From assembly GCA_965250305.1 (NCBI GenBank), contig CBDFNS010000017.1, positions 52,836-116,835 of the forward strand: DNA of 64,000 nt, written 5' to 3'. A program made the position numbers and the translations under genes. The stretch comes from Candidatus Multivoradales bacterium. Its GTDB lineage: Bacteria > Acidobacteriota > Thermoanaerobaculia > Multivoradales > J023. Of this stretch, positions 2,773 to 25,212 are shown in pieces (the first letter of the stretch is position 1; each line of letters starts with the position of its first letter). The notes under the pieces were generated by a model. That model saw nothing but the letters and a program-made list of their open reading frames with translations. It was not told where the DNA came from and searched no databases.

Positions 2773-3169
2773 GGCGATTCTGCGGCGGGGAGATCCGGCC
2801 GGAGACTGCCGAGGTCTCACGCCCGATGCGGCGGCCATGATGCGGCGGCGAATCGTTGCCGAGCAAGTGCCCGTCTTCGAACAAGCGCAAAGGCTCAGGT
2901 CGCCATCTAGACCGTTTCCAGCATTCGCGATGGCAGCGAGCCTGTTCTCGGTGCTGGTGATTGGGTGGCTGTTCTTGCGACCCGACCCGCCGAGCGTGGA
3001 GCACGAGACCGCTCCCAGGGTGGCCTCAGAGGTTGCCGAAACCGAGCGGCCAACGCGCCAGCTTCAGTTCTCGACGCCGGGCGGCACCCGGATCGTCTGG
3101 CTCTTCCAGGCCGACTTTGAAGTGTCGATCCGTAACCATGACAGGAGGTTGAACGATGGACGTTTGTAG
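2738..3169 (+). CDS. putative anti-sigma factor (single-pass membrane protein)
   Basis: ATG is preceded by AAGGAG and the gene overlaps the sigma gene 3' end. One hydrophobic helix is present (FAMAASLFSVLVIGWLFL). The call rests on position only. Confidence 0.5.
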   Translation: MKRRYLRPHEVEAILRRGDPAGDCRGLTPDAAAMMRRRIVAEQVPVFEQAQRLRSPSRPFPAFAMAASLFSVLVIGWLFLRPDPPSVEHETAPRVASEVAETERPTRQLQFSTPGGTRIVWLFQADFEVSIRNHDRRLNDGRL

Positions 3170-6914: not shown

Positions 6915-8712
6915 CCTAAAACAAGCGCATTTGCCGCCTTCGGTACGATTTGGTGTCGAAGTCGGACTCAGAGTCCCCGGCACCCGCCGCATTACCGCCT
7001 GGCCCCTTCATGTTGAGACCCAGCATGGCTGGCGCGAGGCGATTCGAGCCGCTCTACGTCGCGGAAAGCAACGGTTTTGACCATCGACACGGAGCGCAGA
7101 GACACCTCTCCCATCAAGCCAGTCAAACGTAAGTAATTCCGGTGATGAGGCTAGGTGAAACATCGTCGTTTCAAGAGTTGTGTGCCTTGGAGTAAGAGTT
7201 CCGTCCATTGGTTGACAGCCAGCAAGCGAAAGACCAGTTGCCGGCCGCGACTTAGGATCTGTACCGGCGCCAACATCACTTCGTTCAGGAAACGCCGAAA
7301 CTCCATTTTCAAGATCTTTCTTGCGCCCATCGACCGTGGAAGCAGCAGTCCCGACCAAGCTTTGAGATTCCACGCCAGAGCGGCGATTACCAGATACGCC
7401 CAATTCGCATCGAATTGCTGGACCGGCATCCGGGTCGCTTGCACCCCCGTTCTTGAGCTGCTCGATCAGGTTCTCTTGGTTACATCGCGCGTTGTTCTCG
7501 CGCACCACCGCTGCTGGATCCATCTGATCGGCAGGAATGTTGGTGACGTAGAAGAAGTAGCGAACCTCGTCCTCGAGCCGCAACTGGCCTTCTGTGACGC
7601 GAATCTGCTTGCGCAAAACGATCATGCGGTAGGTCTTCTTGGCCTTCGAGGGCTTGTAACTCATCTCGGCGACGTGCTCCTTCTCCAGCGTCAGCTGGCG
7701 GAAACCTCGCTCCTGAATCACGGCTCTCTTCACCTTCTTTGGTCGGCGCCGTTTCGGCTCCCGAACCGGCCGATCCATCGGCGCCCACTGGGCGTCTGCG
7801 AGTTCCTGGGCCCGCCGGACGAAGCTCGGATGCGCATCGATGCCGAACACGAACTCCACGGCGTCCTCCGTCCAGCGATCGAAATTCGTGGTCAGCGAGA
7901 AGTCGGTATCGCCCCGCAGCCGCACGCGCTCAAAGCCGGCACCCTGGCGAGCCCACTCAACTGCCTTGTCGAGCCACGGAGCAGCGCCATCGTGCGACGG
8001 TCGATTGGCCGGGCGGTTGACCAGGAACAGCGGCTCTTGGCTGTTGGCTAGGCTGACCAGCAACGGCCCGAATCCCCAGCGCCCCTTGTAGGAGATGTCC
8101 ATGCCCTCCTTGCACTCCCCCAGAGTGTCGACGAGGGTGCCGTCGACGTCGATCAGCGCCAAGCGACGCTCCTTCTTGGGCTGGGCTCTCCACACGTTCG
8201 TCCGCGCGATGTTGATCGCCTCCATGAGCTGGGTAACGTCTGTAGCAGCGAAGCGGCGCAAGAAGTCACCAGCCGTCGTGGGATCGGGAATACGGCGGGC
8301 ACCCAAGGCGTCGAGAAACGCACTGTCGTGTCGGCGAGCTTCGAGGTCTTCGAGGCACAAACCGCCGCTGAGAAGGTTGTACGCCAAGGCAAGAATGTGA
8401 TCGGACTCGTGGTAGGGAAGGTGACGCTTGAGCAAGCTCACGTTCTCGTCGATGATCTCGCGAAGATCGACGGCCTTGACGACTTCTTGAATCATTCCGA
8501 GGCCGCCACAATTCGTCGCTTCGATCCGGCCCGAGACCTCGTAGCAGATGTTGCCGGACTCGAGGACCGGGTGTTCTCGGTAGGGCTGCCACCTGCGATC
8601 CAAGCGCTTCTCGATCTGGCTTTGACGACGGTCCAAGCAGATAATATCAACAGAATCAGGCGTTTCGGTCGTTTTAGGCAGAATAAAGGGCATTTAATGT
8701 GCTTGGGTTGGG
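6915..8712 (-). mobile_element. IS1380-family insertion sequence (1798 bp) with imperfect terminal inverted repeats and TCTAGA target duplication
   Basis: The ends are CCTAAAACAAGCGCATT (6915 onward) and the reverse complement of 8696-8712, CCCAACCCAAGCACATT. TCTAGA is present at 6909-6914 and again at 8713-8718. Confidence 0.8.
7151..8693 (-). pseudogene. IS1380-family DDE transposase, frameshifted in a homopolymer
   Basis: The N-terminal 415 aa lie in the 7008-8693 frame (…NQENLIEQLKNG). The expected C-terminus (VQATRMPVQQFDANWAYLVIAALAWNLKAW…) continues in the 7151-7444 frame. The switch occurs at the C5 run at 7444-7448. Confidence 0.8.
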
Positions 8713-9999: not shown

Positions 10000-10536
10000 T
10001 CAGTCGTCGACCCGATCAAGCGCGGCGAGGATCGCGTCCGAATCGGCATGGTCGCCGCCTTCTTGGCTCACATGGGCAAAGACAATGCGGCCATCGGCCG
10101 CCGCGACGAAGGTCGCACCCTGTTGCCACGGATCACCTCGCACCGGCCCTTGGCGGAATCCGGCCTTCATCGACCGTGCCGCGTTCTTCACCACCCGTAG
10201 GTTGAAGGTGGCGCCGAGGCCCCGGTGAAGACCAGCCGCGCGGTAGGCCCGCAGCTTGGGGTCGACGAACAGGGGGAAGTCGAGCTGGCGTTCGTCGTAG
10301 AAGGCACGGGCCTGTCGTGGGTTGCCGTTGCCGATGACCAGGAGATCGGCCCCACGATCGCGAATGGAGGAGACGGTGTCACGCAACTGCGCGACGTGCT
10401 CGCGGCAGAACATTCACCCAAAATGGCGAATGAACACCAGCACGGTTGGCCGTCCATCGAGCAGGTGGCCCAGTTGGACCGCCTGGCCGTCGACATCGAG
10501 CACTTCGAGGTGAGTGAGCGTTGTCGTATGGTCCAT
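10000..10536 (-). CDS. peroxiredoxin-like 2 (AhpC/TSA_2, SelU-type) protein with in-frame TGA read as selenocysteine at codon 41
   Basis: ATG at 10536 has GGAGA 6 nt upstream, followed by 40 sense codons and then TGA (10416-10414). The frame continues into the listed 10000-10413 ORF. The junction reads TVLVFIRHFG-U-MFCREHVAQL. Confidence 0.7.
10387..10408 (-). promoter_or_regulatory. candidate bacterial SECIS hairpin
   Basis: The RNA CUGC-C-GCGA[GCACG]UCGC-GCAG forms 8 bp with one bulge and a 5-nt loop starting with G. It begins 5 nt after the UGA. Confidence 0.45.
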
Positions 10537-10586: not shown

Positions 10587-10660
10587 GAAAATCGATCAGG
10601 CATTCCGATTGAAACCGATCAGTGAATCCAACGGAAAGCGATCAGCAAATCCGATCGAAA
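10587..10660. repeat. three and a half tandem 23-24-bp repeats, each carrying CGATCAG
   Basis: The units are gaaaatcgatcaggcattccgatt, gaaaccgatcagtgaatccaacg, gaaagcgatcagcaaatccgatc and a partial gaaagcgg. CGATCAG occurs at 10593, 10616 and 10639. Confidence 0.8.
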
Positions 10661-10843
10661 GCGGCCACATGTGGGATTGGACCGGAATCACTGCTGTCCC
10701 GCTAACTGATCAGAGAAATAGGCTCAGATTCTCTCAGTCTTGATAGAATCCTGGAAGGGGCGGGAAGAAGGAACCGCGCGAGATAGAACATGGTCGCGCT
10801 TCGATGCCCATTTCCTCGGTTTTGACGCCGGTCCGGCACCGGC

Positions 10844-12079
10844 TTAGCGTTCTTCGCTGGGAGCGCTCGTAGCCTCGAAAAGCCCCAACTGGTTGTGCTT
10901 GTGGGCGCCGCGCTTTAAGGGCGCCACCGTGTCGAGACGCAGGCGATGACCGGCTCCGGGGCCCGGTTCGACATTGGCGGGCGCGACCGTTGCGGTGCCG
11001 CCGCGGGCGGCGACTGCCAACAACGTGTCGCGTTCGGGGCGGAGGGCGTCGAGCAACTCGGGACTGTGGGTGGCGATGAACAACTGAGTGTTCTGAGCAG
11101 CTTTTCCGAAGGCTTGGACCAAGGCTGCAAGGGCGCTTGGATGAAGGCCGTGTTCGGGTGTTTCGAGGCCAACGAGACTCACCGCACCCTGGCGTCGGGC
11201 ATCTTGGAAGGCGGCGGTCAGGGTTGCCATCGTCGCCAAGGTTCCGTCCGCCATGTCGGCGGAATGGAGTTTCCACGGGTACCGTGACCCGGCCATTTTT
11301 TGGCGGAATTGGAGGGTCTCGCGTGGGCCAGCCGTGACCCGATCGACTCCGATGGCGCCGGGGACGATGGCGCCAAGGTAGTGGGTGATCAGGTCGAGGG
11401 TCTCGGGATCCTCGCCCTTGAGACGACCGATTACGCTGGGCAAGTTGGCGCCGTTGAGATCGAGTGCCGCACCGCCCGTGGGGACGGAGAGGGAGCGAAG
11501 GGCCGACCGTTCGAAGCGATAAATGCGCATGCTTGCCAGCGTGTCGTAGAGCTCACGAAACGGCTCGAAGGCAGCGGCGCGGGTGAGGTACAGGTGCTCA
11601 CGTTCGGCCGGTGGTGCGGTCGCCAGCGACGTTCGAAGCACAGTGTCTTCGCTGCGGTGGAAGGAACCGAGGATGGTGTTGCCGTCATCACGCACGGTGG
11701 CGCGTTCGGCCACGACCGTCCACGTGCCACTGGGTTGGGTCACCATCTGAAAGCCGTAGTGCGCGAGACACCAACTCGGAAGTCGAAGCTCCATGGCGAA
11801 ACGAATCGTCCGGGGGTGACCCGTGCTACGCCGGCGCACCGCGTCGATGCCGCCTCGGTTGCGTACGGCGGCGCCGAGCGATCCACGGACGGCGTCGGCT
11901 ACGAAGGCGATGGCATCGAGCAGATTGCTCTTGCCAGCACCGTTTCGTCCAACCACCACGGACAACGGCGTCAAGCCAACGTCACAGCGGCCAATGTTGC
12001 GAAAGTTGCGGATCACAAGCCGCCGCAGGGACGGGCCAACCCAACGCCAGTGTTCTTTACTTTGCGGGTCAGCGTGCAT
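10844..12079 (-). CDS. ABC/SMC-like AAA ATPase (AAA_15/AAA_21, COG4637-like), paralog B
   Basis: Walker A is VVGRNGAGKSNLLDA, a signature-like MADGTL is present, and Walker B/D-loop is LVGLETPEHGLHP...ATHSPELL. It is about 50-60% identical to the 12377-13627 product. The start was set at MHADPQ (12079) by alignment with that paralog. Confidence 0.75.
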   Translation of the reverse strand: MHADPQSKEHWRWVGPSLRRLVIRNFRNIGRCDVGLTPLSVVVGRNGAGKSNLLDAIAFVADAVRGSLGAAVRNRGGIDAVRRRSTGHPRTIRFAMELRLPSWCLAHYGFQMVTQPSGTWTVVAERATVRDDGNTILGSFHRSEDTVLRTSLATAPPAEREHLYLTRAAAFEPFRELYDTLASMRIYRFERSALRSLSVPTGGAALDLNGANLPSVIGRLKGEDPETLDLITHYLGAIVPGAIGVDRVTAGPRETLQFRQKMAGSRYPWKLHSADMADGTLATMATLTAAFQDARRQGAVSLVGLETPEHGLHPSALAALVQAFGKAAQNTQLFIATHSPELLDALRPERDTLLAVAARGGTATVAPANVEPGPGAGHRLRLDTVAPLKRGAHKHNQLGLFEATSAPSEER

Positions 12080-12239
12080 GGTGACGCGGGTCCAGGAAGG
12101 GGATCGGAATGAGGAGAGTAGCACGATGGCACGTTCGCAGTTGCGCCGAAGGTGCAGCTAGACGTTTTCGGAGCGTTTGAGGCTGGTTGGGTCGTTGTGA
12201 GTGGTAGAAAGGTGCTCGCGAAGTTTTCGACACAAGCGA

Positions 12240-12377
12240 TCAAATGACGGGCCGGATCGGTCGAAGAACCTGCGGATAGTCGCGTAACTCCAGATGTTCG
12301 GTTATCCGGGTAAGAAGCGTCCGGACAGCGTACGCCTCGCCATGTCCCTCGACAATTGGAGCGATCCAGTAAGGCAT
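12240..12377 (-). pseudogene. 45-codon remnant of a DUF4276/Toprim-like partner gene
   Basis: MPYWIAPIVEGHGEAYAVRTLLTRI matches the VEGxxExxxVxxLL N-terminus I recall for DUF4276. The ATG shares its A with the TGA of the upstream ATPase (TGATG). A stop follows after 45 codons, whereas full-length family members are about 200 aa. Confidence 0.5.
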
Positions 12378-13627
12378 CAGTGAAGTGCCTCGGAACTCCC
12401 AAAGAGCTGCATCTGTTCCTGACGCTCGATATCGAACTCATCGATCTCGAGTTGATCCATTCGGAGAAGGTCGCCAGGGGAGTAGAGATGTTCCGCGATG
12501 GCTTGGCGGCTTGCTTCATCCGCCGGTGCAAGGCTGGTCTTGCCGTCTTCGGAAACGACAACGAACAAGCCCTCCGAACCGCTGTCGACATCGATGGCGT
12601 CCAAGAGATCTGGGCTGTGGCTGGTCACGATGACTTGCGTATGGGGAGTGGCCTCGCGGAGGGCATCCATCAGCGCGGCACTGGCTGCCGGATGGAGTGC
12701 GGTTTCGGGTTCCTCGATTCCGACGAGTCCAGCATACCGGTTGGTTGCTAACAACTGAGAAATGGCGATGAGAGATCCCAAAGCCCGCAGCGTTCCATCG
12801 GACATGTACTGAGCGAAGATTCGCCAAGGATGTTTGGCTCCGGTCACCCGCTGCCGAAACTCGAGCGTCTCGCGAGGGCCAAGCGAGACCCGCCTGACGC
12901 TGGTAATTCCCGGTACGATGACTTTCAAGAACTGTTTGATGCGATCGAAAGCGTGCGATTCTTCCTGTTCGAGTCGAGCGATGACGCTTGCGATATTGCT
13001 GCCGTCCCGCGCCAGAAGATCGCCAGCATCTGGGCTTTGCAATTCCTTTATGGCCTCGGGATTCAGATTGTAAAATCCCATCGATGCCAGGGCCTCGAAC
13101 GACTCCTTGAATTCTTGAAAACCGCTGGCTACTACAAGGTACAACCGGTCGTGAACCGGCTCCGGCGGATTGGTCAGGCTCGAGTCCAACACATTGTCCC
13201 GCCTGAGGAAATAGGACGCCGTCCGATTGTCCGGCGCGCGGAGTCGGAGTTCCTCGTGTTTGACGACAAATCCTCCCCTTCCTTTGGCAGCGATTTCGAA
13301 TCCATAGGATACTTGCCAGAGCGAAGGCAGAGTAAGCTCGAGCTTGATCGCAAAGTTGCGGGGATGTCCAGTGCTTCTGCGGCGAACGGCGTCAAGGCCA
13401 CCGCGTGTCTTTATCGCATGGTCGAGTGTGGTTTGAAGGCTATCGCTTACAAATCGGAGAGCGTCGAGGAAGTTGCTCTTTCCGGCTCCGTTTCGGCCTA
13501 CGAGAAATGTCAATGGAAAGAGCGTGATGTCACATTGGCCGATACTCTTGCAGTTCTTTATCCGAACACGGCGAAGAAAGGGTTGTGGTGTCTGGGAGTT
13601 TGTTTCGTGTCGCGAGAGGGTAGGCAT
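12377..13627 (-). CDS. ABC/SMC-like AAA ATPase (AAA_15/AAA_21, COG4637-like), paralog A
   Basis: Walker A is LVGRNGAGKSNFLDA, the signature is MSDGTLRAL, and Walker B/D-loop is LVGIEEPETALHP...VTSHSPDLL. The gene is visibly more AT-rich than paralog B. Confidence 0.8.
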   Translation of the reverse strand: MPTLSRHETNSQTPQPFLRRVRIKNCKSIGQCDITLFPLTFLVGRNGAGKSNFLDALRFVSDSLQTTLDHAIKTRGGLDAVRRRSTGHPRNFAIKLELTLPSLWQVSYGFEIAAKGRGGFVVKHEELRLRAPDNRTASYFLRRDNVLDSSLTNPPEPVHDRLYLVVASGFQEFKESFEALASMGFYNLNPEAIKELQSPDAGDLLARDGSNIASVIARLEQEESHAFDRIKQFLKVIVPGITSVRRVSLGPRETLEFRQRVTGAKHPWRIFAQYMSDGTLRALGSLIAISQLLATNRYAGLVGIEEPETALHPAASAALMDALREATPHTQVIVTSHSPDLLDAIDVDSGSEGLFVVVSEDGKTSLAPADEASRQAIAEHLYSPGDLLRMDQLEIDEFDIERQEQMQLFGSSEALH

Positions 13628-13744
13628 GGTCGAGTTTTGACTGGTGTGTTCTTCCAGGCGAGAGTATCATGGACCGTTCTAAGAGCCCGCTGCAACCACG
13701 TGGGCCCGGCTCCCTCGAGCCTCGAATCACAGGAGTCCTACGAG

Positions 13745-14836
13745 ATGAGTTCTCCCCAACGCATTCTCAATTTTTCCGCCGGGCCTGCAATGCTACCGGA
13801 ACCTGTGCTCGAAGAAGCGCGCAGCGACCTCTGGAGCTTGGGTGAAACCGGTGTCGGTATCCTCGAGCATAGCCACCGCGGTGGCGCGTTCACGCAGGTT
13901 ATCGACGAGGCTGAAGCCGATTGCCGCAGCTTGGCGGGCCTCGACGACGACTACGCGGTGCTGTTTCTGCAAGGCGGTGCGACGCTTCAGTTTGCCCAGG
14001 TGCCGATGAGCTTTCTGGGTGACGGTGCGAAAGCAGACTACTTGAACACGGGGGTATGGACGAAGAAGGCGATCGCCAATGCCGGGCTCTTTGGCGATAT
14101 TCACCTCGCCTTCGATGGTGCGGCGAGCGCTTTCGACCATGTCCCGTCCGCGTCGGAGCTGGATGGGCGAGCGGATGCGACCTACACCTGGTACTGCTCG
14201 AACAACACCATCGCCGGAACGCAGTACGCGCAGCCGCCTGCCGTCTCGACGCCTTTGGTTTGCGATGCCAGCTCGGACATCTTCTCGCGGCCGTTGCCGC
14301 TCACCAACCACGCGATGGTGATCGCGGGCGCCCAGAAGAATCTCGGGGGTGCCGGCTGCACGCTGGTGATCTCCCGTCGGGATTTCTTGGACCGAGTTCG
14401 TGACGGATTGCCACCCATGCTCGACTATCGTCAGCATGCAGCCAAGGGTTCATGCCTCAACACACCGCCCACCTTTGCGATCTATGTCATGGGGCGGGTG
14501 TTCAAATGGCTGAAGGGCCAGGGTGGCCTCGAGGCGATGGCCCGCATCAATACTGCCAAGGCGGCGGCGATCTACGATGCGATCGACACCAGTGGCGGTT
14601 TCTACCGTGCGGTGGCCCGGCCCGGCTCGCGCTCGCAGATGAACATCACGTTCCGAACGCCAAATAATGAGTTGGACAAGACCTTCATTGCCGAGGCGTT
14701 GGTACAAGGGATGTCGGGGCTGAAGGGCCACCGGAGTGTCGGCGGTTTGCGGGCTTCGATCTACAACGCGTTTCCGGCATCGGGTTGCGCGACCTTGGCC
14801 TCGTTGATGGGCGACTTCGCGTCGCGCAACGGCTGA
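13745..14836 (+). CDS. serC: phosphoserine aminotransferase
   Basis: MSSPQRILNFSAGPAMLPEPVLEEA... and the C-terminal GGLRASIYNA are characteristic of SerC. AGGAG lies upstream of the ATG at 13745. The longer listed ORF start (12830) overlaps the ATPase antisense. Confidence 0.9.
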   Translation: MSSPQRILNFSAGPAMLPEPVLEEARSDLWSLGETGVGILEHSHRGGAFTQVIDEAEADCRSLAGLDDDYAVLFLQGGATLQFAQVPMSFLGDGAKADYLNTGVWTKKAIANAGLFGDIHLAFDGAASAFDHVPSASELDGRADATYTWYCSNNTIAGTQYAQPPAVSTPLVCDASSDIFSRPLPLTNHAMVIAGAQKNLGGAGCTLVISRRDFLDRVRDGLPPMLDYRQHAAKGSCLNTPPTFAIYVMGRVFKWLKGQGGLEAMARINTAKAAAIYDAIDTSGGFYRAVARPGSRSQMNITFRTPNNELDKTFIAEALVQGMSGLKGHRSVGGLRASIYNAFPASGCATLASLMGDFASRNG

Positions 14837-16885: not shown

Positions 16886-18286
16886 ATGTTCCGGCTCGAC
16901 TTTGATCGCGGCACGCTTCTGGTCTCGCCGGAGGGCGATGGTGAAGACGGTGTCAGGACCGCGCCTGAGGTCCTTCCGGAAGGGCTGACCCTTCCGGGCT
17001 GCCGTTTCGACAAGCGGGTCAAACGGTGGCGGGCGCCAGCCTGTTGCTACCACGACGTGGTCATGGCCTTGCATCGGGCGAAGGTGCCGTTTGACGATCA
17101 GGCACGGGACTACGAGAAACTCGAGCTCGTGTCACGGGTGGTGCGAGAGCCCTATCCGCACCAAGCCGAGGCGGTGGAAGCGTGGTGGCGGGCTGGACGT
17201 CGAGGGGTCGTTGTGTTGCCGACTGGATCGGGCAAGACCTACGTGGCACAGATGCTCCTCGAGCGCCTGGGGCGTGGTGCCTTGGTCGTGACCCCGACCC
17301 TCGATCTCATGCAGCAGTGGTACGGGGTCTTGGGGACCGCGTTCGATATGGAGATTGGCTTGGTGGGCGGCGGGTATTACGAGGTGCGACCCATCACCGT
17401 GACGACTTACGACTCGGCCTACATCCACGCTGAGCGCCTGGGCAACCAGTTTGCCTTGCAGGTGTACGACGAATGTCATCACCTACCGGGTCCTGCCTAT
17501 ACCGCCGCCGCGGAGCTTTCGATCGCGCCCTTTCGGTTGGGCCTGACCGCGACGCCCGAACGCGAGGACGGTGCCGAGCGCATTCTCGATCGACTGATCG
17601 GTCCCATTGTCTATCGCCGAGAGATCAAGGAACTGTCAGGTGACTATCTCGCGGACTATGAGGTCGAAACGCTGCGGGTGCGTCTGTCCGATGCCGAACG
17701 CGAGGCGTACCAGCAGGCGCGCGCGATCTACCGCGAGTTCGTGACCAGCAAGGGCATTCGGTTCGGTGGTCCGCAGGGCTGGCAGCAGTTCTTGATGATG
17801 ACCTCGGCATCGGAGGAAGGGCGGCGGGCCTTTCTCGCGTACCGCGAGCAAAAGACCATCGCCCAGGCCGCCGACGCCAAGCTGCGCATGCTCGAGCGTT
17901 TGCTGGCGCGTCATCGCCACGATCGCGCGATCATCTTTACCAACGACAATGCCACGGTCTACCGGATCTCGAGGCAGTTCTTGATTCCCGCGATCACGCA
18001 TCAAACCAAGGTCAAAGAGCGGCACACCACTTTGGCCCGATTCAACGACGGCACCTATCCATTCTTGGTGACCTCGCGCGTACTCAACGAAGGGGTTGAC
18101 GTACCAGCCGCCAACGTCGGGATTGTGCTTTCGGGAAGCGGTACCGTCCGCGAGCACGTGCAACGCCTCGGGCGTATCTTGCGCCGCGCCGAGGGCAAAC
18201 AGGCCCGGCTGTACGAGCTGGTGACCGAAGACACCGCCGAAGAGATGACCAGTGCGAGGAGACGTCAACATGACGCGTATCGGTGA
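16886..18286 (+). CDS. XPB/Ssl2(RAD25)-like SF2 DNA helicase
   Basis: Motifs are PYPHQAEAV, Walker A VLPTGSGKT, DECHH, TATPERED and the C-terminal RVLNEGVDVP...QRLGRILR. An N-terminal DRD-like extension is present. Confidence 0.85.
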   Translation: MFRLDFDRGTLLVSPEGDGEDGVRTAPEVLPEGLTLPGCRFDKRVKRWRAPACCYHDVVMALHRAKVPFDDQARDYEKLELVSRVVREPYPHQAEAVEAWWRAGRRGVVVLPTGSGKTYVAQMLLERLGRGALVVTPTLDLMQQWYGVLGTAFDMEIGLVGGGYYEVRPITVTTYDSAYIHAERLGNQFALQVYDECHHLPGPAYTAAAELSIAPFRLGLTATPEREDGAERILDRLIGPIVYRREIKELSGDYLADYEVETLRVRLSDAEREAYQQARAIYREFVTSKGIRFGGPQGWQQFLMMTSASEEGRRAFLAYREQKTIAQAADAKLRMLERLLARHRHDRAIIFTNDNATVYRISRQFLIPAITHQTKVKERHTTLARFNDGTYPFLVTSRVLNEGVDVPAANVGIVLSGSGTVREHVQRLGRILRRAEGKQARLYELVTEDTAEEMTSARRRQHDAYR

Positions 18287-19512
18287 TGCTCACTTCTGAT
18301 CTCATTCAAGTACGCGCCTACAAGGGCGAGATGCGGCCGCGTTATGTGGAGGCGCGCGATCCCGAGGGGTTGGCGTTGGCCGCGCAGCTGATCGATGCGT
18401 TCGAGCAGTGCGCCGGGCAGGCTCGTCACGTGCTCGATGAGGAGCTCAAGTCGTTGTTGGGTACCGGCACCGCGTTTCAACTGCATCGGGCGCTGGCCAA
18501 GCTGCTACGCGATCGCTGTACCTTCGACACCGAGGCGCCGGCACCACCACCGGACTTGCGCGAGGCGGTTTTCGGCGCGTCTGCAGATGCGTATCGGGCC
18601 GACCCTGGGGAGGGGCCCTTTCGCTTCGAACGCGCCGTGCCAATGGCGGTCGCTGCGACCAGCCTGTCGCTCGAGCCAGGCCAGGTCGAGCAGTCGTTGT
18701 ACGGTGATCTCAAGGACGAGCAGGTCTTGCAAGCTTTCGACGTCTGCGCTCCGCGTTGGTTGCTCGATCGCTACAACGTAGCCTTGGCACAGGGCGTCTT
18801 GTACAGGGCGATTGCGCTCGAGATCCACATTGCAGGACAGCGGCCAACGGCCTATCGCACGTTGTTTCGGAAAATTAAGTTCTTCCAGTTGATGCACCGT
18901 GTCGAGCGGCTGGGAAACGCGGCAGGCGACGGCTATCGCATTCGCCTCGATGGTCCACTCTCGGTACTGCGCGCCAGTGGTCGCTACGGACTGCAAATGG
19001 CGGTCTTTCTGCCGACCCTGTTGCATTTCGACGGCTGGACCCTCGACGCCGAGCTGCGGTGGGGGAAGGGGCGCCGCAAGCGGACCTTCCGGCTCACGCC
19101 AACCCAAGGTCTGCGCTCGTATACCAAGCTCACCGGTCAATGGCAGCCCGAAGAACTCAAGTGGTTGCCCGAGCAACTCGCGAAGCTCGGCCGTGGCTGG
19201 ACCGCGAGTACCGATGCTGAGCTCATCGATCTGGGCGGTGAAGGCGTCTTGGTACCCGACTTCGTTTTTGAACACGCGGAAACGGGACATCGCGTGTTCA
19301 TGGAGGTGTTCGGGTACTGGAACAAAGGGGCGGTGAAGGCCCGGCTCCGGTTGTTGCGCAGGCATGGCCCCAAGAACCTCGTGCTCGCCTTGTCCAAAGC
19401 ACTGGCCGCTGGTGCAGGGGAACTCGAAGACCTGCCTGCCGAGGTCTACGTGTTTCGAACCACCCCGCTGGCCCGGCAGGTAGTCAAGATCTTGGACGGC
19501 ATGAAAGGCTGA
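18283..19512 (+). CDS. DUF790-family (Bax1-like) nuclease
   Basis: The start overlaps the helicase stop (GTGATG). LVPDFVFEHAETGHRVFMEVFGYWNKGAVKARL is the typical DUF790 C-terminal nuclease core. Confidence 0.75.
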   Translation: MMLTSDLIQVRAYKGEMRPRYVEARDPEGLALAAQLIDAFEQCAGQARHVLDEELKSLLGTGTAFQLHRALAKLLRDRCTFDTEAPAPPPDLREAVFGASADAYRADPGEGPFRFERAVPMAVAATSLSLEPGQVEQSLYGDLKDEQVLQAFDVCAPRWLLDRYNVALAQGVLYRAIALEIHIAGQRPTAYRTLFRKIKFFQLMHRVERLGNAAGDGYRIRLDGPLSVLRASGRYGLQMAVFLPTLLHFDGWTLDAELRWGKGRRKRTFRLTPTQGLRSYTKLTGQWQPEELKWLPEQLAKLGRGWTASTDAELIDLGGEGVLVPDFVFEHAETGHRVFMEVFGYWNKGAVKARLRLLRRHGPKNLVLALSKALAAGAGELEDLPAEVYVFRTTPLARQVVKILDGMKG

Positions 19513-19979: not shown

Positions 19980-21011
19980 TCAACGATCTGGGTCGTATAC
20001 CTCCTGTGCCTTCCACATGGACAAGGCCGTTGCGGCGATCTGGCGTGCGACGGTCACTTTGGCGAGGTTCGGCTTGGTGCCTCCATCGCAAAGTCGGTCG
20101 TAGGCGACACGGAAGCGATTGGCCTTGCTTGTAATCACGGTCGTCGCCGCGCCCTTGAAGATCATCTTCAGTGTTCGGTTGTGAAACCGATTCAGCCCAC
20201 GCGTCTGGGCGATCTTGGCTTTGGTCCAGACTCCGCCAGCGCGCGTCCAGTCTGCTGAAGATCGCATCACGACTCCAAAGCCACAATAGGACCAGAATTG
20301 CCGCTTGGTCCGGAATCGGTGAGGTGTCACTACCACCGGAATCATCTGAGCGACCCGGATCGGGCCCAGTCCAGGAATTGTCTCGAGAACCCGTGAGATC
20401 GGGAATCGGTGCGACTCGGTCACCATCGCCTTTTCGGCCTCGAGCTTCAGTGTCGTCTGGAAGTCCAACGCTGTGCCGAGTAACTCGACCGTCGGTCTCA
20501 TCGCATTCGGGAGTTCTTTGATCCGCTTCGCCCGGGAGCTGGGGGAGTAAACCGAGTTCCCCGTGCACACCACACCGCGTCTCTGGTAGGTGCTCTTCAG
20601 ACGGTTCTTGGTCCGGACCAAGTCCCTCGTCATCAAGCCGTAGACTCGCGAGAGCTCGCGCAGCTTGGTGAAGCCCTTCCCTGCTTTGAAGATCGGATGC
20701 TCCGTGCGACCCGTACGGATGCGATCTGCTAGCTCCCATGCATCGATCGCATCGCTCTTCGGCCCCGTCTTGCGCTCGCCGTGGACCACCACCAACTCCG
20801 CCACGTGAGGAGACAAAATCTCGTGGAGCCAATGCGCCCACTGGCACTCTTCGATGCACAAGTGGAGCCGGCCAGCGCACTGCTTCAGATAGCCAACAAG
20901 CGCCTGGCCATTCGTTTCCACGATGGCCTGACCTAGCCGCTTGCCGCCCTCGCTGAGCGTTGCAATTGTGCAACTTGCCGAATGCACGTCCATTCCAAGG
21001 TAGCGTTCCAT
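19980..21011 (-). CDS. IS110-family DEDD transposase/recombinase
   Basis: The N-terminus is MERYLGMDVHSASC... (DEDD/RuvC-like). The C-terminal LETIPGLGPIRVAQMI...FWSYCGFGVVMRSSAD is Transposase_20-like. AGGAGG lies upstream of the ATG. Confidence 0.9.
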   Translation of the reverse strand: MERYLGMDVHSASCTIATLSEGGKRLGQAIVETNGQALVGYLKQCAGRLHLCIEECQWAHWLHEILSPHVAELVVVHGERKTGPKSDAIDAWELADRIRTGRTEHPIFKAGKGFTKLRELSRVYGLMTRDLVRTKNRLKSTYQRRGVVCTGNSVYSPSSRAKRIKELPNAMRPTVELLGTALDFQTTLKLEAEKAMVTESHRFPISRVLETIPGLGPIRVAQMIPVVVTPHRFRTKRQFWSYCGFGVVMRSSADWTRAGGVWTKAKIAQTRGLNRFHNRTLKMIFKGAATTVITSKANRFRVAYDRLCDGGTKPNLAKVTVARQIAATALSMWKAQEVYDPDR

Positions 21012-21822: not shown

Positions 21823-22836
21823 ATGATGATTGTTGCCGAGAACCTGTGCAAGTCGTTTCGCGTTCACCGCAAGGACCCTGGGTTGTGGGGCTCGGTGCGT
21901 TCGTTGGTGCGTCGTGAATGGGTGACGAAAGACGCGGTCCGGGACGTCTCCTTCGAGGTCGAAGAGGGCGAGATCGTGGGTCTGATCGGCGCCAATGGTG
22001 CCGGCAAGACAACGGTGATCAAGATGTTGGCCGGCATTATCCACCCGAGTAGCGGCCGGGCGCGGGTTCTGGGCCACGACCCTTGGCTGCGGGATGATCG
22101 CCTGCGCCGACAGGTGGCGTTGATCATGGGGCAGAAGGCTCAGCTGTGGTGGGACCTTCCTGCGGCAGATTGCTTCTTGCTGCTCAAGGAAATCTATCGG
22201 ATACCGGATGACCAGTACCGCGCGACCTTGGATCGCTTGACCAGCTTGCTCGAGGTACGCGACGAGCTGAATGTACAGATCCGCCGCCTGTCGCTGGGCG
22301 AGCGAATGAAAATGGAGTTGATCGCGACCCTGCTGCACGCGCCGAGGGTGGTGTATCTCGATGAGCCAACCATCGGTCTCGATCTCTCGGCCCAACGTGC
22401 CATTCGCAGTTTCGTGTTGGCGTACCGCCAGGAACGGCAACCGGCCATGATCGTAACCAGTCACTACATGGAGGACATCGAGCGCCTGTGCAAGCGAATC
22501 ATGATTCTGCGCGATGGTGAGTTGGTGTTCGACGGCTCTTTGCGCGAGGTGATGGCGCGTTATGCGACGCACAAGGTGGTCACCGTACAGCTCCGCGGGC
22601 AAGGGGGTGAACCGGCTGGACGCGAGATGGTAGCGGCCATGGGAACGATTCTCGAATGGCACCCGGGCACGGTGCGGGTCCAGGTGCCACGCGCGGCGGT
22701 TGCCGAGGTCGCCGGAGCGCTTCTCGCCCAGTATCCGGTTGCCGATCTGGCCATTGAAGAGGCAGCCGTGGGTAGTGTCATCGAGCGGATCCAAGCTGCG
22801 CGTGCGGAACCAGTCGTCGCGGGATCATCACAGTGA
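21823..22836 (+). CDS. ABC transporter ATP-binding protein
   Basis: Walker A is GANGAGKTT, the signature is LSLGERMK and Walker B is VVYLDEPTIGLD. Confidence 0.9.
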   Translation: MMIVAENLCKSFRVHRKDPGLWGSVRSLVRREWVTKDAVRDVSFEVEEGEIVGLIGANGAGKTTVIKMLAGIIHPSSGRARVLGHDPWLRDDRLRRQVALIMGQKAQLWWDLPAADCFLLLKEIYRIPDDQYRATLDRLTSLLEVRDELNVQIRRLSLGERMKMELIATLLHAPRVVYLDEPTIGLDLSAQRAIRSFVLAYRQERQPAMIVTSHYMEDIERLCKRIMILRDGELVFDGSLREVMARYATHKVVTVQLRGQGGEPAGREMVAAMGTILEWHPGTVRVQVPRAAVAEVAGALLAQYPVADLAIEEAAVGSVIERIQAARAEPVVAGSSQ

Positions 22837-23687
22837 ACGCGAGCTTCATGACGCCCCGACTGTTCCGGACGTTGGTCAGCCTCGAGACCCGGAAGCTCAT
22901 GAGCTATCGGGTCGACTTCTGGCTGAATACCACGGTGGCCTTGGCGCTCGAGCTGGCCGTCGCCTATTTTCTCTGGCGGGCCATCTTCGGAACTGGTGGG
23001 GCTGGTGGCGCTGGCTCGGACGTTGCGCCCACGCGACTCGGGGGATTCACCTTCGAAGGCATGATGGTCTACTACGTTCTGGCGCTCTTGCTGGGGCGCT
23101 TGGTACGCGGCCAAGAGCGCGGCGACGCCATGTCCCTCGACATCTATGACGGTGGCCTAAGCCGGTACTTGATTTACCCGTCCAGCTACGTTGGTTTCAA
23201 ATACGCGGGGCACCTCGGCCAGCTCTTACCGGCGGTTATCCAACTCGTGGGCTTTGGGGTTGTCGCTGCGTGGTGGCTCCCCCTGCCGGCCGAGTTGGCA
23301 ATCACACCAGGATCGGTCGCCATGACGCTTGGTTCCGTTGGGGTGGCCAACCTTCTGGCCTTCCTGCTGCGCTATCCGCTCGCCGCGGTGGCATTCTGGG
23401 CTGACAACGTCTGGTCGCTCCACGCCATGATGCGCTTTGTGGGCAACCTGCTCGGCGGCTTCATGTTGCCACTCTCTCTGTTTCCCCTGTGGGCCCAAGA
23501 TGCCCTGAATTGGCTCCCATTCGCGCACCTGTTTTACGAGCCGGTTCAGACGCTCCTGGGTCAACGCACGGTGGCAGAGTGGGGTCGAGGGCTCGGCATT
23601 GCCGTCGGCTGGTGCGTCGTACTCGGGTTGCTTGGGCGGTGGGTGTGGCACCGAGGCTACCTGCGCTACTCCGGGGTCGGAATCTGA
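22833..23687 (+). CDS. ABC-2 type transporter permease (DUF990-like)
   Basis: The start overlaps the ATPase stop. The product is a multi-helix hydrophobic protein similar in layout to the 24406-25212 product. Confidence 0.7.
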   Translation: MNASFMTPRLFRTLVSLETRKLMSYRVDFWLNTTVALALELAVAYFLWRAIFGTGGAGGAGSDVAPTRLGGFTFEGMMVYYVLALLLGRLVRGQERGDAMSLDIYDGGLSRYLIYPSSYVGFKYAGHLGQLLPAVIQLVGFGVVAAWWLPLPAELAITPGSVAMTLGSVGVANLLAFLLRYPLAAVAFWADNVWSLHAMMRFVGNLLGGFMLPLSLFPLWAQDALNWLPFAHLFYEPVQTLLGQRTVAEWGRGLGIAVGWCVVLGLLGRWVWHRGYLRYSGVGI

Positions 23688-23738
23688 TGTGCTGGGCATC
23701 TGAGGTGCCAGCATGATGATTCGTTCATGGTGTAAATT

Positions 23739-23747
23739 TGGTAGAAT
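23739..23747 (+). promoter_or_regulatory. extended -10 promoter element (TGgTAGAAT) for vapBC, probably leaderless
   Basis: TGGTAGAAT ends 6 nt before the vapB ATG (23754). No Shine-Dalgarno sequence lies in between. Confidence 0.4.
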
Positions 23748-23753
23748 GGTTGA

Positions 23754-24026
23754 ATGCCTCTCAACATCAAGAACCCACAAGTAGAGTTGTTGGTCGCCGA
23801 AGTCGCTGCGGTGACCGGTGAGTCCAAGACCGAGGCAGTGCGGCGCGCTCTCGAAGAGCGCCGAGGGCGTCTGAACTACAGCCAAAGTGAGTTAGATCGA
23901 GGTGCTCGATTGCGACGCGTGCTCGAAACCGAGATTTGGCCGTTGGTTCCGACTGCCGAGCAGGGGCGTCGCCTCAGCAAGGAAGAAGAAGAGGCGTTGT
24001 TGGGAATTGGCCCGGAGGGCGTGTGA
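23754..24026 (+). CDS. vapB: type II antitoxin, VapB (Rv0623/PSK-like) family
   Basis: MPLNIKNPQVELLVAEVAAVTGESKTEAVRRALEERR is typical of this antitoxin family. Confidence 0.8.
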   Translation: MPLNIKNPQVELLVAEVAAVTGESKTEAVRRALEERRGRLNYSQSELDRGARLRRVLETEIWPLVPTAEQGRRLSKEEEEALLGIGPEGV

Positions 24027-24409
24027 TTCTCGACTCGTCCGCCGTGGTGGCGATTGTCTTCCGCGAACCAGGGTGGCAGAAGCTCCTGGATCGGATCGAG
24101 AAGAGCCCACAGGTCGCGATCGGTGCGAATACGTTGGTCGAAACCACGATCGTGCTGTCGGCTCGAATGCATTGCGATGCTCGGGGCCTTGTTGCGCGGC
24201 TGCTGCGAGAGGCGGGCATTGTGGTGAGCAGCTTTTCCGAAGCACACTATGGATTGGCGCTCGAGGCCTGGCTTCGATTCGGAAAGGGGCGGCATCCGGC
24301 TTCACTGAATTTCGGCGACTGTCTTTCCTACGCCACCGCCCGATTGGCGGGTGAGCCGTTGCTCTGTGTGGGCGAAGATTTCTTACAGACCGATCTCGAC
24401 CTCGCGTGA
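24023..24409 (+). CDS. vapC: type II toxin, PIN-domain VapC
   Basis: The GTG start overlaps the vapB TGA. Motifs are VILDSSAVVAI (first acidic residue), NFGDCLSYATA, and the C-terminal LLCVGEDFLQTD. Confidence 0.85.
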   Translation: MILDSSAVVAIVFREPGWQKLLDRIEKSPQVAIGANTLVETTIVLSARMHCDARGLVARLLREAGIVVSSFSEAHYGLALEAWLRFGKGRHPASLNFGDCLSYATARLAGEPLLCVGEDFLQTDLDLA

Positions 24410-25212
24410 CCGACGGATTTCCGATGAGCCGCTACGTCCGGCTTTACCTTCACTTCTTGCGCTTCTCGTTCAGTCGGGCGATGGCGTTTCGCGTGGACTT
24501 TCTCTTCCGCGTGGTAATGGACATTCTCTACTACGTCGTGAACCTGGCCTTTTTCGCGGTGATCTACCGGCACACGAGTTTGCTCGGTGGTTGGACGCTC
24601 GACGAAACGTTGGTTTTTGTGTGCGCCTTTCTGTGGGCCGACGCCTTCTACATGACGGTGTTTTCAACCAACTTCTGGTGGCTGCCGATCGCGATCAATC
24701 GCGGTGACCTGGACTACCACTTGATGCGGCCTGTGTCGTCACTGTTTATCTTGACCTTGCGTGAGTTTGCGGCCAATTCTTTTCTGAATCTCCTGATCGC
24801 GACCGGCCTCGTATGGTGGTCGCTGGCACGCTATCCGGGTACGTTGGACCCGGTTCGCATACTCGTGTTCCTCATCTTGCTCTTGGTTGGGTCGCTGATG
24901 TTCGCGCTGCTGCGGGTGATTTTCATCATTCCGATCTTCTGGATGCACAACGGGCGTGGGCTCGACGAAGTGACCTGGTCCCTTTCGAACCTTGCCCACC
25001 GACCCCACCAAATCTATCACCCGGTGGTGCGCGCCATTCTTCTATCGGTTCTACCGCTGGCGTTTATCGCGTCGGTTCCGGCCCACGCGTTGCTGCAAGG
25101 TCTCACGGTCGGTGGCGCGCTGCATGTTGTCGGCGTGTTTGTTGGTTTGTTCGTCACGGCCCTTCTGCTTTGGCGGCGTGGCCTGCGTGCCTATGCCTCT
25201 GCGTCTTCATGA
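24406..25212 (+). CDS. ABC-2 type transporter permease (DUF990-like), second subunit
   Basis: The product is a multi-helix hydrophobic protein. The GTG start overlaps the vapC TGA (GTGA); an alternative ATG lies at 24424. Confidence 0.7.
   Translation: MTDGFPMSRYVRLYLHFLRFSFSRAMAFRVDFLFRVVMDILYYVVNLAFFAVIYRHTSLLGGWTLDETLVFVCAFLWADAFYMTVFSTNFWWLPIAINRGDLDYHLMRPVSSLFILTLREFAANSFLNLLIATGLVWWSLARYPGTLDPVRILVFLILLLVGSLMFALLRVIFIIPIFWMHNGRGLDEVTWSLSNLAHRPHQIYHPVVRAILLSVLPLAFIASVPAHALLQGLTVGGALHVVGVFVGLFVTALLLWRRGLRAYASASS

Follow-up and report, generated by a model that had tools for sequence, protein, structure and literature searches.

Bacterial peroxiredoxin-like (Prx-like) selenoproteins with a UxxC motif, in which U denotes selenocysteine (Sec), have been reported since 2004-2008, and the literature separates these UxxC Prx-like proteins from the TxxU Prx. 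SelL is described in PMC2398784 and PMC3316567 as a Prx-like thioredoxin-fold selenoprotein whose redox motif occupies the CxxC position, with bacterial members known from marine metagenomes; its defining feature there, after Shchedrina et al. (2007), is a UxxU motif, the two Sec residues of which form a diselenide. SelU1 is the Sec-containing member of the PRXL2/SelU proteins in fish and other eukaryotes (PMC3316567). The present analysis concerns a related locus on the minus strand (-) of a 64,000-nucleotide (nt) stretch of DNA from Candidatus Multivoradales bacterium (GCA_965250305.1, contig CBDFNS010000017.1), the whole of which is referred to below as the window. An earlier note, made from the letters of this DNA, had proposed that a 137-residue open reading frame (ORF) listed in the window belongs to a selenoprotein gene that the ORF track had split at a TGA codon. 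This proposal is borne out by family profile hidden Markov models, by the alignment of Sec with Cys, by a TGA at 74 of 87 homologous loci and by purifying selection upstream of the TGA. We therefore hold with high confidence that 10536-10000 (-) is a real selenoprotein gene, which encodes a 178-residue thioredoxin-fold redox enzyme with a UGA-encoded Sec at codon 41, and that the listed 137-residue ORF is a truncation artefact.

By NCBI's own criterion the window protein is a member of NCBIfam family NF040769 ('SelL-related redox protein'), whose curated subfamily model is in use in PGAP, and no family-level difference from it was detected. SelL in the strict sense was considered and rejected, as the window codons TGA-ATG-TTC-TGC encode U-M-F-C and not UxxU; the window gene and 71 of the 73 distinct TGA-containing forms have one Sec in a UxxC motif, which sets them apart from SelL by motif description. 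With the PRXL2/SelU proteins (PF13911; PRXL2B structures 9us9 and 9usa) the window protein shares the motifs R-x-F-G-[C/U]-x-x-C-R and GDxxQxGG. PRXL2B is nevertheless a remote homologue, with a sequence identity to the window family of only about 22-24%, and its prostaglandin chemistry is not expected in bacteria. The position of the selenocysteine insertion sequence (SECIS) differs as well: the candidate element of the window gene is part of the coding region just 3' of the UGA, whereas that of eukaryotic SelU lies in the 3' untranslated region. The published bacterial Prx-like selenoproteins were found through Sec/Cys pairs combined with a downstream hairpin, as was the case for this gene; their entries, compared here by description only, are indexed to PF00578, pfam04592, PF08534 or cd02970 with UxxS.

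The split gene and its protein family

The complete coding sequence (10536-10000, -) comprises 178 codons including the predicted Sec41 and ends at a TGA stop at 10002-10000. Inspection of the sequence upheld each of the landmarks on which the original proposal was built. The listed ORF starts at an ATG (10413-10411) immediately 3' of an in-frame TGA (10416-10414), and upstream of this TGA the frame is open for 40 further codons to an ATG at 10536-10534, which is preceded by a Shine-Dalgarno-like GGAGA (10546-10542) with a spacer of 5 nt. The GGAGA was read from the sequence and its function is presumed, while the start codon is matched by N-termini in orthologues (MDNVTEL in L003, MLDLSKL in L004 and MTIATTL in L007). 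Translation across the TGA reads MDHTTTLTHLEVLDVDGQAVQLGHLLDGRPTVLVFIRHFG-*-MFCREHVAQLRD... over the 178 codons. The N-terminal extension missed by ORF calling (codons 2-40, 10533-10417) holds the first beta-strands and RHFG, and the active-site context is F-I-R-H-F-G-U-M-F-C, with the predicted Sec codon U41 at 10416-10414 and, at 10407-10405, the TGC of Cys44, the predicted resolving Cys of U-x-x-C. Further downstream, the family signature GDPWQQG (residues 134-140, 10137-10117) occupies invariant or nearly invariant alignment columns (alignments A1 and A4) and is aligned with GDLLQSG of PRXL2B.

For all protein searches, the TGA was replaced by Cys. The membership in AhpC/TSA_2 (PRXL2) that had been suggested from the sequence was recovered by two models above their cutoffs: PF13911 (AhpC-TSA_2) matched with 72.8 bits against a gathering threshold of 27 (E = 3.7e-20), and for NF040769, which has a curated cutoff of 120 bits, the score was 136 (E = 1e-39), with positions 4-172 of the 173-position profile covered. 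The E-value for PF00578 (AhpC-TSA) fell from 6.5e-6 to 8.9e-13 once the 40 N-terminal residues were added, and the extension therefore supplies real elements of the fold. A canonical peroxiredoxin of the PF00578 core was rejected as an identity, as PF00578 is the weaker, general-fold match and the PxxxT/SxxC(U) pattern lacks its Pro and Thr at the required positions; because the PxxxTxxC motif is absent, the protein is not a classical Prx.

The nearest sequence in the PDB is that of human prostamide/PGF synthase PRXL2B (9us9, E = 9.7e-9), which aligns RRFG-C-VVC-R over RHFG-U-MFC-R. The TGA indeed falls on the catalytic Cys position, as had been claimed, since it stands opposite the Cys of the full-length homologues and opposite Cys44 of PRXL2B; Cys44 of the window protein is aligned with PRXL2B Cys47, and a deposited C44S/C47S mutant of PRXL2B marks both active-site positions. 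The structure was modelled on a proxy, the full-length Cys homologue P0003, which is 52% identical to the window protein (predicted local distance difference test 92.6, predicted template modelling score 0.89). In this model Cys41 lies between a strand (31-35) and a helix (42-60), which would put the equivalent Sec41 at the classic active-site location of the thioredoxin fold. The best PDB fold match of the model is the PRXL2B C44S/C47S mutant (template modelling score 0.81/0.88, root-mean-square deviation 2.3 A), followed by PrxQ/BCP and ResA. Domain searches and the proxy model agree that the 137-residue ORF alone is without the first beta-strands, as the earlier note had argued, and without the active-site nucleophile.

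Homologues and the hairpin downstream of the UGA

Homology searches returned two types of relatives, namely full-length proteins of 179-205 residues with RHFG-C-[M/L]FCRE and many short ones of 125-140 residues, which begin exactly at the residue after the Cys position of the full-length proteins. On the independent contigs L001-L006, a called ORF of 40-61 residues ends where the 'short' gene begins, and translation through the junction gives RH[F/Y]G-TGA-MFCRE behind an N-terminus that is conserved. When one genome per species was scanned, 80 more loci were added (best identity 56%), for a total of 87, of which 74 have TGA, 12 have TGC and one has TGT as the active-site codon. As the TGA is aligned with Cys in the full-length homologues and recurs in 74 of the 87 loci, its placement is far beyond chance. 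The 80 scanned loci span Acidobacteriota, Myxococcota (Polyangia, Kofleriaceae and Anaeromyxobacter), Planctomycetota, Binatia, Eisenbacteria, Gemmatimonadota, Desulfobacterota and others. At U+3, a Cys is present in 71 of the 73 distinct TGA forms and in all 13 Cys forms, the other two TGA forms are UxxA, and a second TGA was found at this position in none of the 73. The UxxA forms are both from Desulfobacterota (L076, ~2038-2049, and L086, ~3112-3123), one of them Desulforapulum autotrophicum; their U-M-F-A motif is without the resolving Cys and, judged from the motif, would imply a one-selenol mechanism. It should also be noted that a metagenome-assembled genome labelled Margulisiibacteriota (DATKMS01) has two TGA-form copies on separate contigs (L022 and L028).

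The same break recurs in public protein catalogues. With the Cys form as the query, HMMER was run exhaustively against 1.84 billion cluster representatives and recovered 950 relatives at E <= 1e-10; among the best 150 of these 950, ~20 start exactly one residue past the Cys/Sec position and ~20 more start a few residues later. Altogether, ~40 of the top 150 representatives (50% identity clusters) and most of the close matches in 90% clusters lack the N-terminal part up to Sec or just beyond it, including P0002, P0008-P0018, P0080, P0081 and P0122, some of which are named 'peroxiredoxin' or 'hypothetical protein'. Start positions of this kind are the mark of gene models that were systematically cut short at a UGA not recognised as such.

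To either side of the TGA, the window gene was compared with L003, L004, L001 and L007 by the Nei-Gojobori method, using the last 36 upstream codons and the first 60 downstream codons. The ratio of nonsynonymous to synonymous substitution rates (dN/dS) was 0.12-0.37 upstream and 0.24-0.64 downstream, values that are rough because synonymous sites are near saturation, and the proportion of nonsynonymous differences (pN) was well below that of synonymous differences (pS) in every comparison. By these ratios, the 36 upstream codons are under purifying selection. Neither of the two patterns against which the earlier note had set its proposal, orthologues that start at the downstream Met and N-terminal 40 codons that are unconserved among homologues, was found: the N-terminal extension is conserved in all 87 loci, and the residue after U in the 73 TGA forms is Leu in 32, Met in 23, Ile in 14, Ala in 3 and Val in 1. 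As Met follows U in no more than these 23 forms, a restart at the downstream Met is ruled out as a family-wide explanation.

The bacterial SECIS model (bSECISearch; PMC13188914, Fig. 2) has a loop of 3-9 nt on a stem of 4-16 bp with an energy <= -7.5 kcal/mol, a G in the first two loop positions that is usually followed by G or U, and a UGA-to-loop distance of 16-37 nt. A SECIS had been proposed at a bulged 8-bp hairpin with a G-initiated 5-nt loop at 10408-10387 (-), here called hairpin B. This hairpin exists (loop GCACG, -10.5 kcal/mol alone, starting 5 nt after the UGA), but only at chance level. Separate folding of each orthologue gave a different and recurrent hairpin, GUCGCGC-AGUU-GCGCGAC, 18 nt past the UGA. 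Its counterpart in the window, hairpin A (10395-10378, -; GUCGCGC-AGUU-GCGUGAC), has 7 bp including one G.U pair, is built by the codons for V-A-Q-L-R-D and shares the sequence of its 5' arm with hairpin B. Hairpin A agrees with the model in every respect (4-nt loop A-G-U-U at 10388-10385, 7 bp, 25 nt from UGA to loop and -11.7 kcal/mol), whereas hairpin B has only 14 nt from UGA to loop and a loop G that is followed by C.

The two hairpins were compared on gap-free, codon-registered alignments of the 73 distinct TGA forms (A2) and the 13 Cys forms (A3), with 500 shuffles. Among the TGA forms, hairpin A had 84.1% of its cells paired (72.2% in shuffles) and 52 compensatory cells against 18.2+-3.3 in shuffles, a count reached by 0 of the 500, while hairpin B had 81.5% paired (80.3% in shuffles) and 8 compensatory cells against 7.0 (reached by 190 of the 500). 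The covariation scores were 0.379 for hairpin A and 0.170 for hairpin B, with shuffled means of 0.186 and 0.160, respectively. In the Cys forms, pairing dropped to 40.7% for hairpin A, which is no better than shuffles, and was 53.8% for hairpin B; sliding hairpin A to other registers gave <=54% paired throughout. At least 6 of the 7 pairs of hairpin A are formed in 53 of the 73 TGA forms and in none of the 13 Cys forms; of the two hairpins, A is the more stable in 63 of the 73 TGA forms. Its loops are AGUU (46), AGGU (5) and GGUC (2), each with a G-U, and the loop Leu is encoded by the rare codon UUG in 51 of 54 TGA forms versus 1 of 10 Cys forms. In Kofleriaceae, VAQLRD (GUC GCG CAG UUG CGC GAC) has become VVQLHR/H (GUG GUG CAG UUG CAC CGC/CAC) with the pairing kept. 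Such compensatory changes in hairpin A alter the protein, and the putative SECIS would thereby constrain the peptide that it encodes. Hairpin B was rejected as the SECIS for its short spacing and its lack of covariation, its pairing being explained by column composition. Of the original claim, the presence of a SECIS-like element just after the UGA stands, and its location does not, as the conserved hairpin is that at 10395-10378 and not that at 10408-10387.

About a quarter of the TGA forms (~20) have a shifted hairpin A or another hairpin nearer the UGA, such as GCGAGCAG-GCU-GCUCGC. In the first 40 nt past the TGA, the homologues L048, L050, L051, L060, L083, L076 and L086 are without hairpin A and have a hairpin ~10 nt past the UGA, either GCGAGCAG-GCU-GCUCGC or GGCAGCAG-GCU-GCUGCC. 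These alternative hairpins suggest SECIS turnover within one protein family.

Alternative explanations and selenocysteine decoding

Several results weigh against the interpretation of this locus as a selenoprotein gene. The genes selA, selB and selD were absent among the 49 candidate ORFs of the 64-kb window (Pfam annotation), tRNA-Sec was not found in the window (ARAGORN, 0 tRNAs), Rfam at gathering thresholds gave 0 matches there, and a search of the window for other coding-like ORF pairs split by a TGA returned only the gene at 10000-10536. At the RNA level, the minimum free energy (MFE) structure of 60 nt of the window is an extended hairpin B (-20.2 kcal/mol, versus -17.7 for the fold with hairpin A), the predicted equilibrium probability of hairpin A on naked RNA is ~0.04, and its 18-nt spacer exceeds the 11 nt of Escherichia coli fdhF. 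The lack of Sec machinery in 64 kb of a large genome is uninformative. MFE folding was discarded as a discriminator, as shuffled sequences fold about as well as the 76-nt region (z = -0.63) and the MFE favours the hairpin that is not conserved; hairpin A is thus preferred over B because of the comparative evidence, not thermodynamics. With the UGA in the ribosomal A site, the 5' arm of hairpin B might lie inside the mRNA channel, and hairpin A might then be free to fold.

Evidence on decoding capacity also comes from the relatives. Anaeromyxobacter, many Deltaproteobacteria and Acidobacteria are Sec decoders (PMC1794560), and lineages listed there carry TGA forms of this gene. Together with a TGA-specific covarying hairpin across many phyla, this lends indirect support to Sec decoding, and the organism of the window presumably decodes Sec as well. 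No tRNA-Sec was found within 3 kb of the homologues (86 loci). Upstream of a Kofleriaceae TGA-form homologue (L044), at a distance of ~1.6 kb, ARAGORN called a 'tRNA-Glu(ctc)' at 1344-1440, whose unusual length of 97 nt is typical of tRNAs with a long variable arm.

One could suppose that a TGC-to-TGA nonsense mutation killed a Cys-type PRXL2-like gene in this lineage, which would now be a pseudogene without a full-length product. Such a mutation needs one base change, the neighbouring insertion sequence (IS) elements suggest a plastic region, and Sec machinery was not seen in the window. Such a loss is nevertheless hard to reconcile with the same TGA in 74 of 87 loci from many phyla and with purifying selection on both halves of the gene, and the TGA-form-specific covarying hairpin is intact in the window, down to the rare UUG codon in its loop. 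We regard a pseudogene as very improbable.

A further possibility is that the UGA is read through without Sec, by near-cognate insertion of Trp or Cys stimulated by the downstream structure or by some other local recoding. Stable downstream structures can stimulate stop-codon read-through in general, and the Sec machinery of this genome is presumed. The position, however, is that of the catalytic Cys of a CxxC motif, for which only Cys and Sec are chemically equivalent, and the hairpin fits the SECIS model of the SelB type, down to a small loop that contains G-U. UGA is moreover the commonest ordinary stop in the window, where it ends 26 of the 49 candidate ORFs; this excludes a reassignment of UGA in this genome and likewise speaks against read-through, as does the documentation of related lineages as Sec decoders. 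Read-through of this kind is scarcely credible to us.

That the locus instead makes a genuine 137-residue protein from Met 10413, with the 40-codon upstream ORF separate or non-coding, would suit the ATG immediately 3' of the TGA in the window and the many 125-140-residue catalogue 'proteins' that begin there and are so annotated by gene callers, but we give this next to no credence, as 50 of 73 orthologues have Leu, Ile, Ala or Val after the TGA and no conserved restart codon, the short form lacks beta-strands and the active-site nucleophile of the fold, and the 36 upstream codons have the low dN/dS given above and can be aligned to the N-terminal ends of the full-length Cys forms.

If 10536-10000 is indeed a selenoprotein gene, its expression and activity can be outlined from established bacterial Sec insertion and thioredoxin-fold CxxC chemistry. 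With the ribosome at or near UGA41, hairpin A (10395-10378) would recruit SelB.GTP.Sec-tRNA(Sec), and Sec would be inserted in place of termination. Sec41, at the point where a beta-strand leads into the N-terminal end of the first long helix, would be the attacking nucleophile of the U41-x-x-C44 motif. Resolution of the intermediate by Cys44 would give a selenenylsulfide, and the enzyme would be recycled by an external reductant, probably a system of the thioredoxin type. The substrate is likely to be of a class such as a disulfide, a peroxide or an endoperoxide-like oxidant. The actual insertion of Sec in this organism, the binding of SelB to hairpin A, the catalytic cycle and the substrate are thus proposed by analogy.

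Genomic neighbourhood and place of the family

A DUF445 membrane-protein gene (PF04286; 9973-8714, -) lies 26 nt downstream of the selenoprotein gene, and the two are possibly co-transcribed. The DUF445 protein was considered as a functional partner and rejected, since it is a common neighbour only in the two closest relatives (L003 and L004), a case of local synteny. The 5' intergenic region of the selenoprotein gene contains a 23-nt tandem repeat at 10589-10663 (consensus AAAGCGATCAGCAAATCCGATCG on the + strand, 3.3 copies, 75% matches). It was not found upstream in the two closest relatives and was rejected as a conserved regulatory element, though it might serve as a regulatory array at this locus. 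Two paralogous genes for AAA_21/AAA_15 (AbiEii/OLD-like) ATPases stand in tandem a short way upstream (10844-12124, -, and 12377-13627, -), and IS transposases flank the region (DDE_Tnp_1_4 at 7008-8693 and IS110 at 19980-21011); the ATPase pair and the IS region may be a mobile or defence-like islet.

Elsewhere in the window, a listed 668-residue ORF (12830-14836, +) is over-long: its class-V aminotransferase (SerC-like) domain begins only at residue 312, its 5' part overlaps the antisense AAA ATPase gene, and its real start is probably near 13760. A gene for an XPB/ERCC3-like helicase (16886-18286, +; XPB_DRD, ResIII and Helicase_C) overlaps by 4 nt with a DUF790 gene (18283-19512, +; E = 2e-94), and the two form a tightly coupled pair. 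A PIN-domain gene (23936-24409, +) lies between two genes for ABC-2 membrane components in an ABC transporter operon (21823-25212). Pfam annotation of the 49 ORFs also identified a sulfatase, FG-GAP/ASPIC proteins, an extracytoplasmic function (ECF) sigma factor and IS elements, a gene content that, taken by itself, might point to a Planctomycetota-like organism.

Bacterial UxxC Prx-like selenoproteins, PRXL2/SelU, SelL and SECIS elements within coding regions are all established, and the gene adds little new knowledge to them. Its interest, which is minor, lies in the strong bias of the clade towards Sec, the systematic truncation in catalogues and the SECIS that would constrain its peptide. 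Literature searches for 'SelL-related redox protein' or NF040769 gave no matches, and the 119-family table of a 2026 review does not list PF13911 or NF040769 with UxxC, its nearest entries being cd02970 with UxxS and generic Prx-like ones. The databases may therefore be ahead of the literature in their curation of this family. That it is curated in databases (NF040769) and at the same time absent from the published prokaryotic selenoprotein inventories strikes us as doubtful. Were it so, the inventories would lack a family that is widespread in soil and sediment phyla (Acidobacteriota, Myxococcota, Planctomycetota and Binatia), with a Sec:Cys ratio of ~6:1 among close relatives and a SECIS for which another hairpin, closer to the UGA, appears to have been substituted on at least one occasion. 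Such a family would offer a natural system for the study of SECIS turnover and of the conflict between RNA and protein constraints.

Dozens of cluster representatives in the public catalogues share the truncation seen in the window, and surveys of function, domains or selenoproteomes in Planctomycetota-, Acidobacteriota- and Myxococcota-like genomes undercount this family. For the organism of the window, the gene implies a Sec-decoding trait and a selenium requirement.

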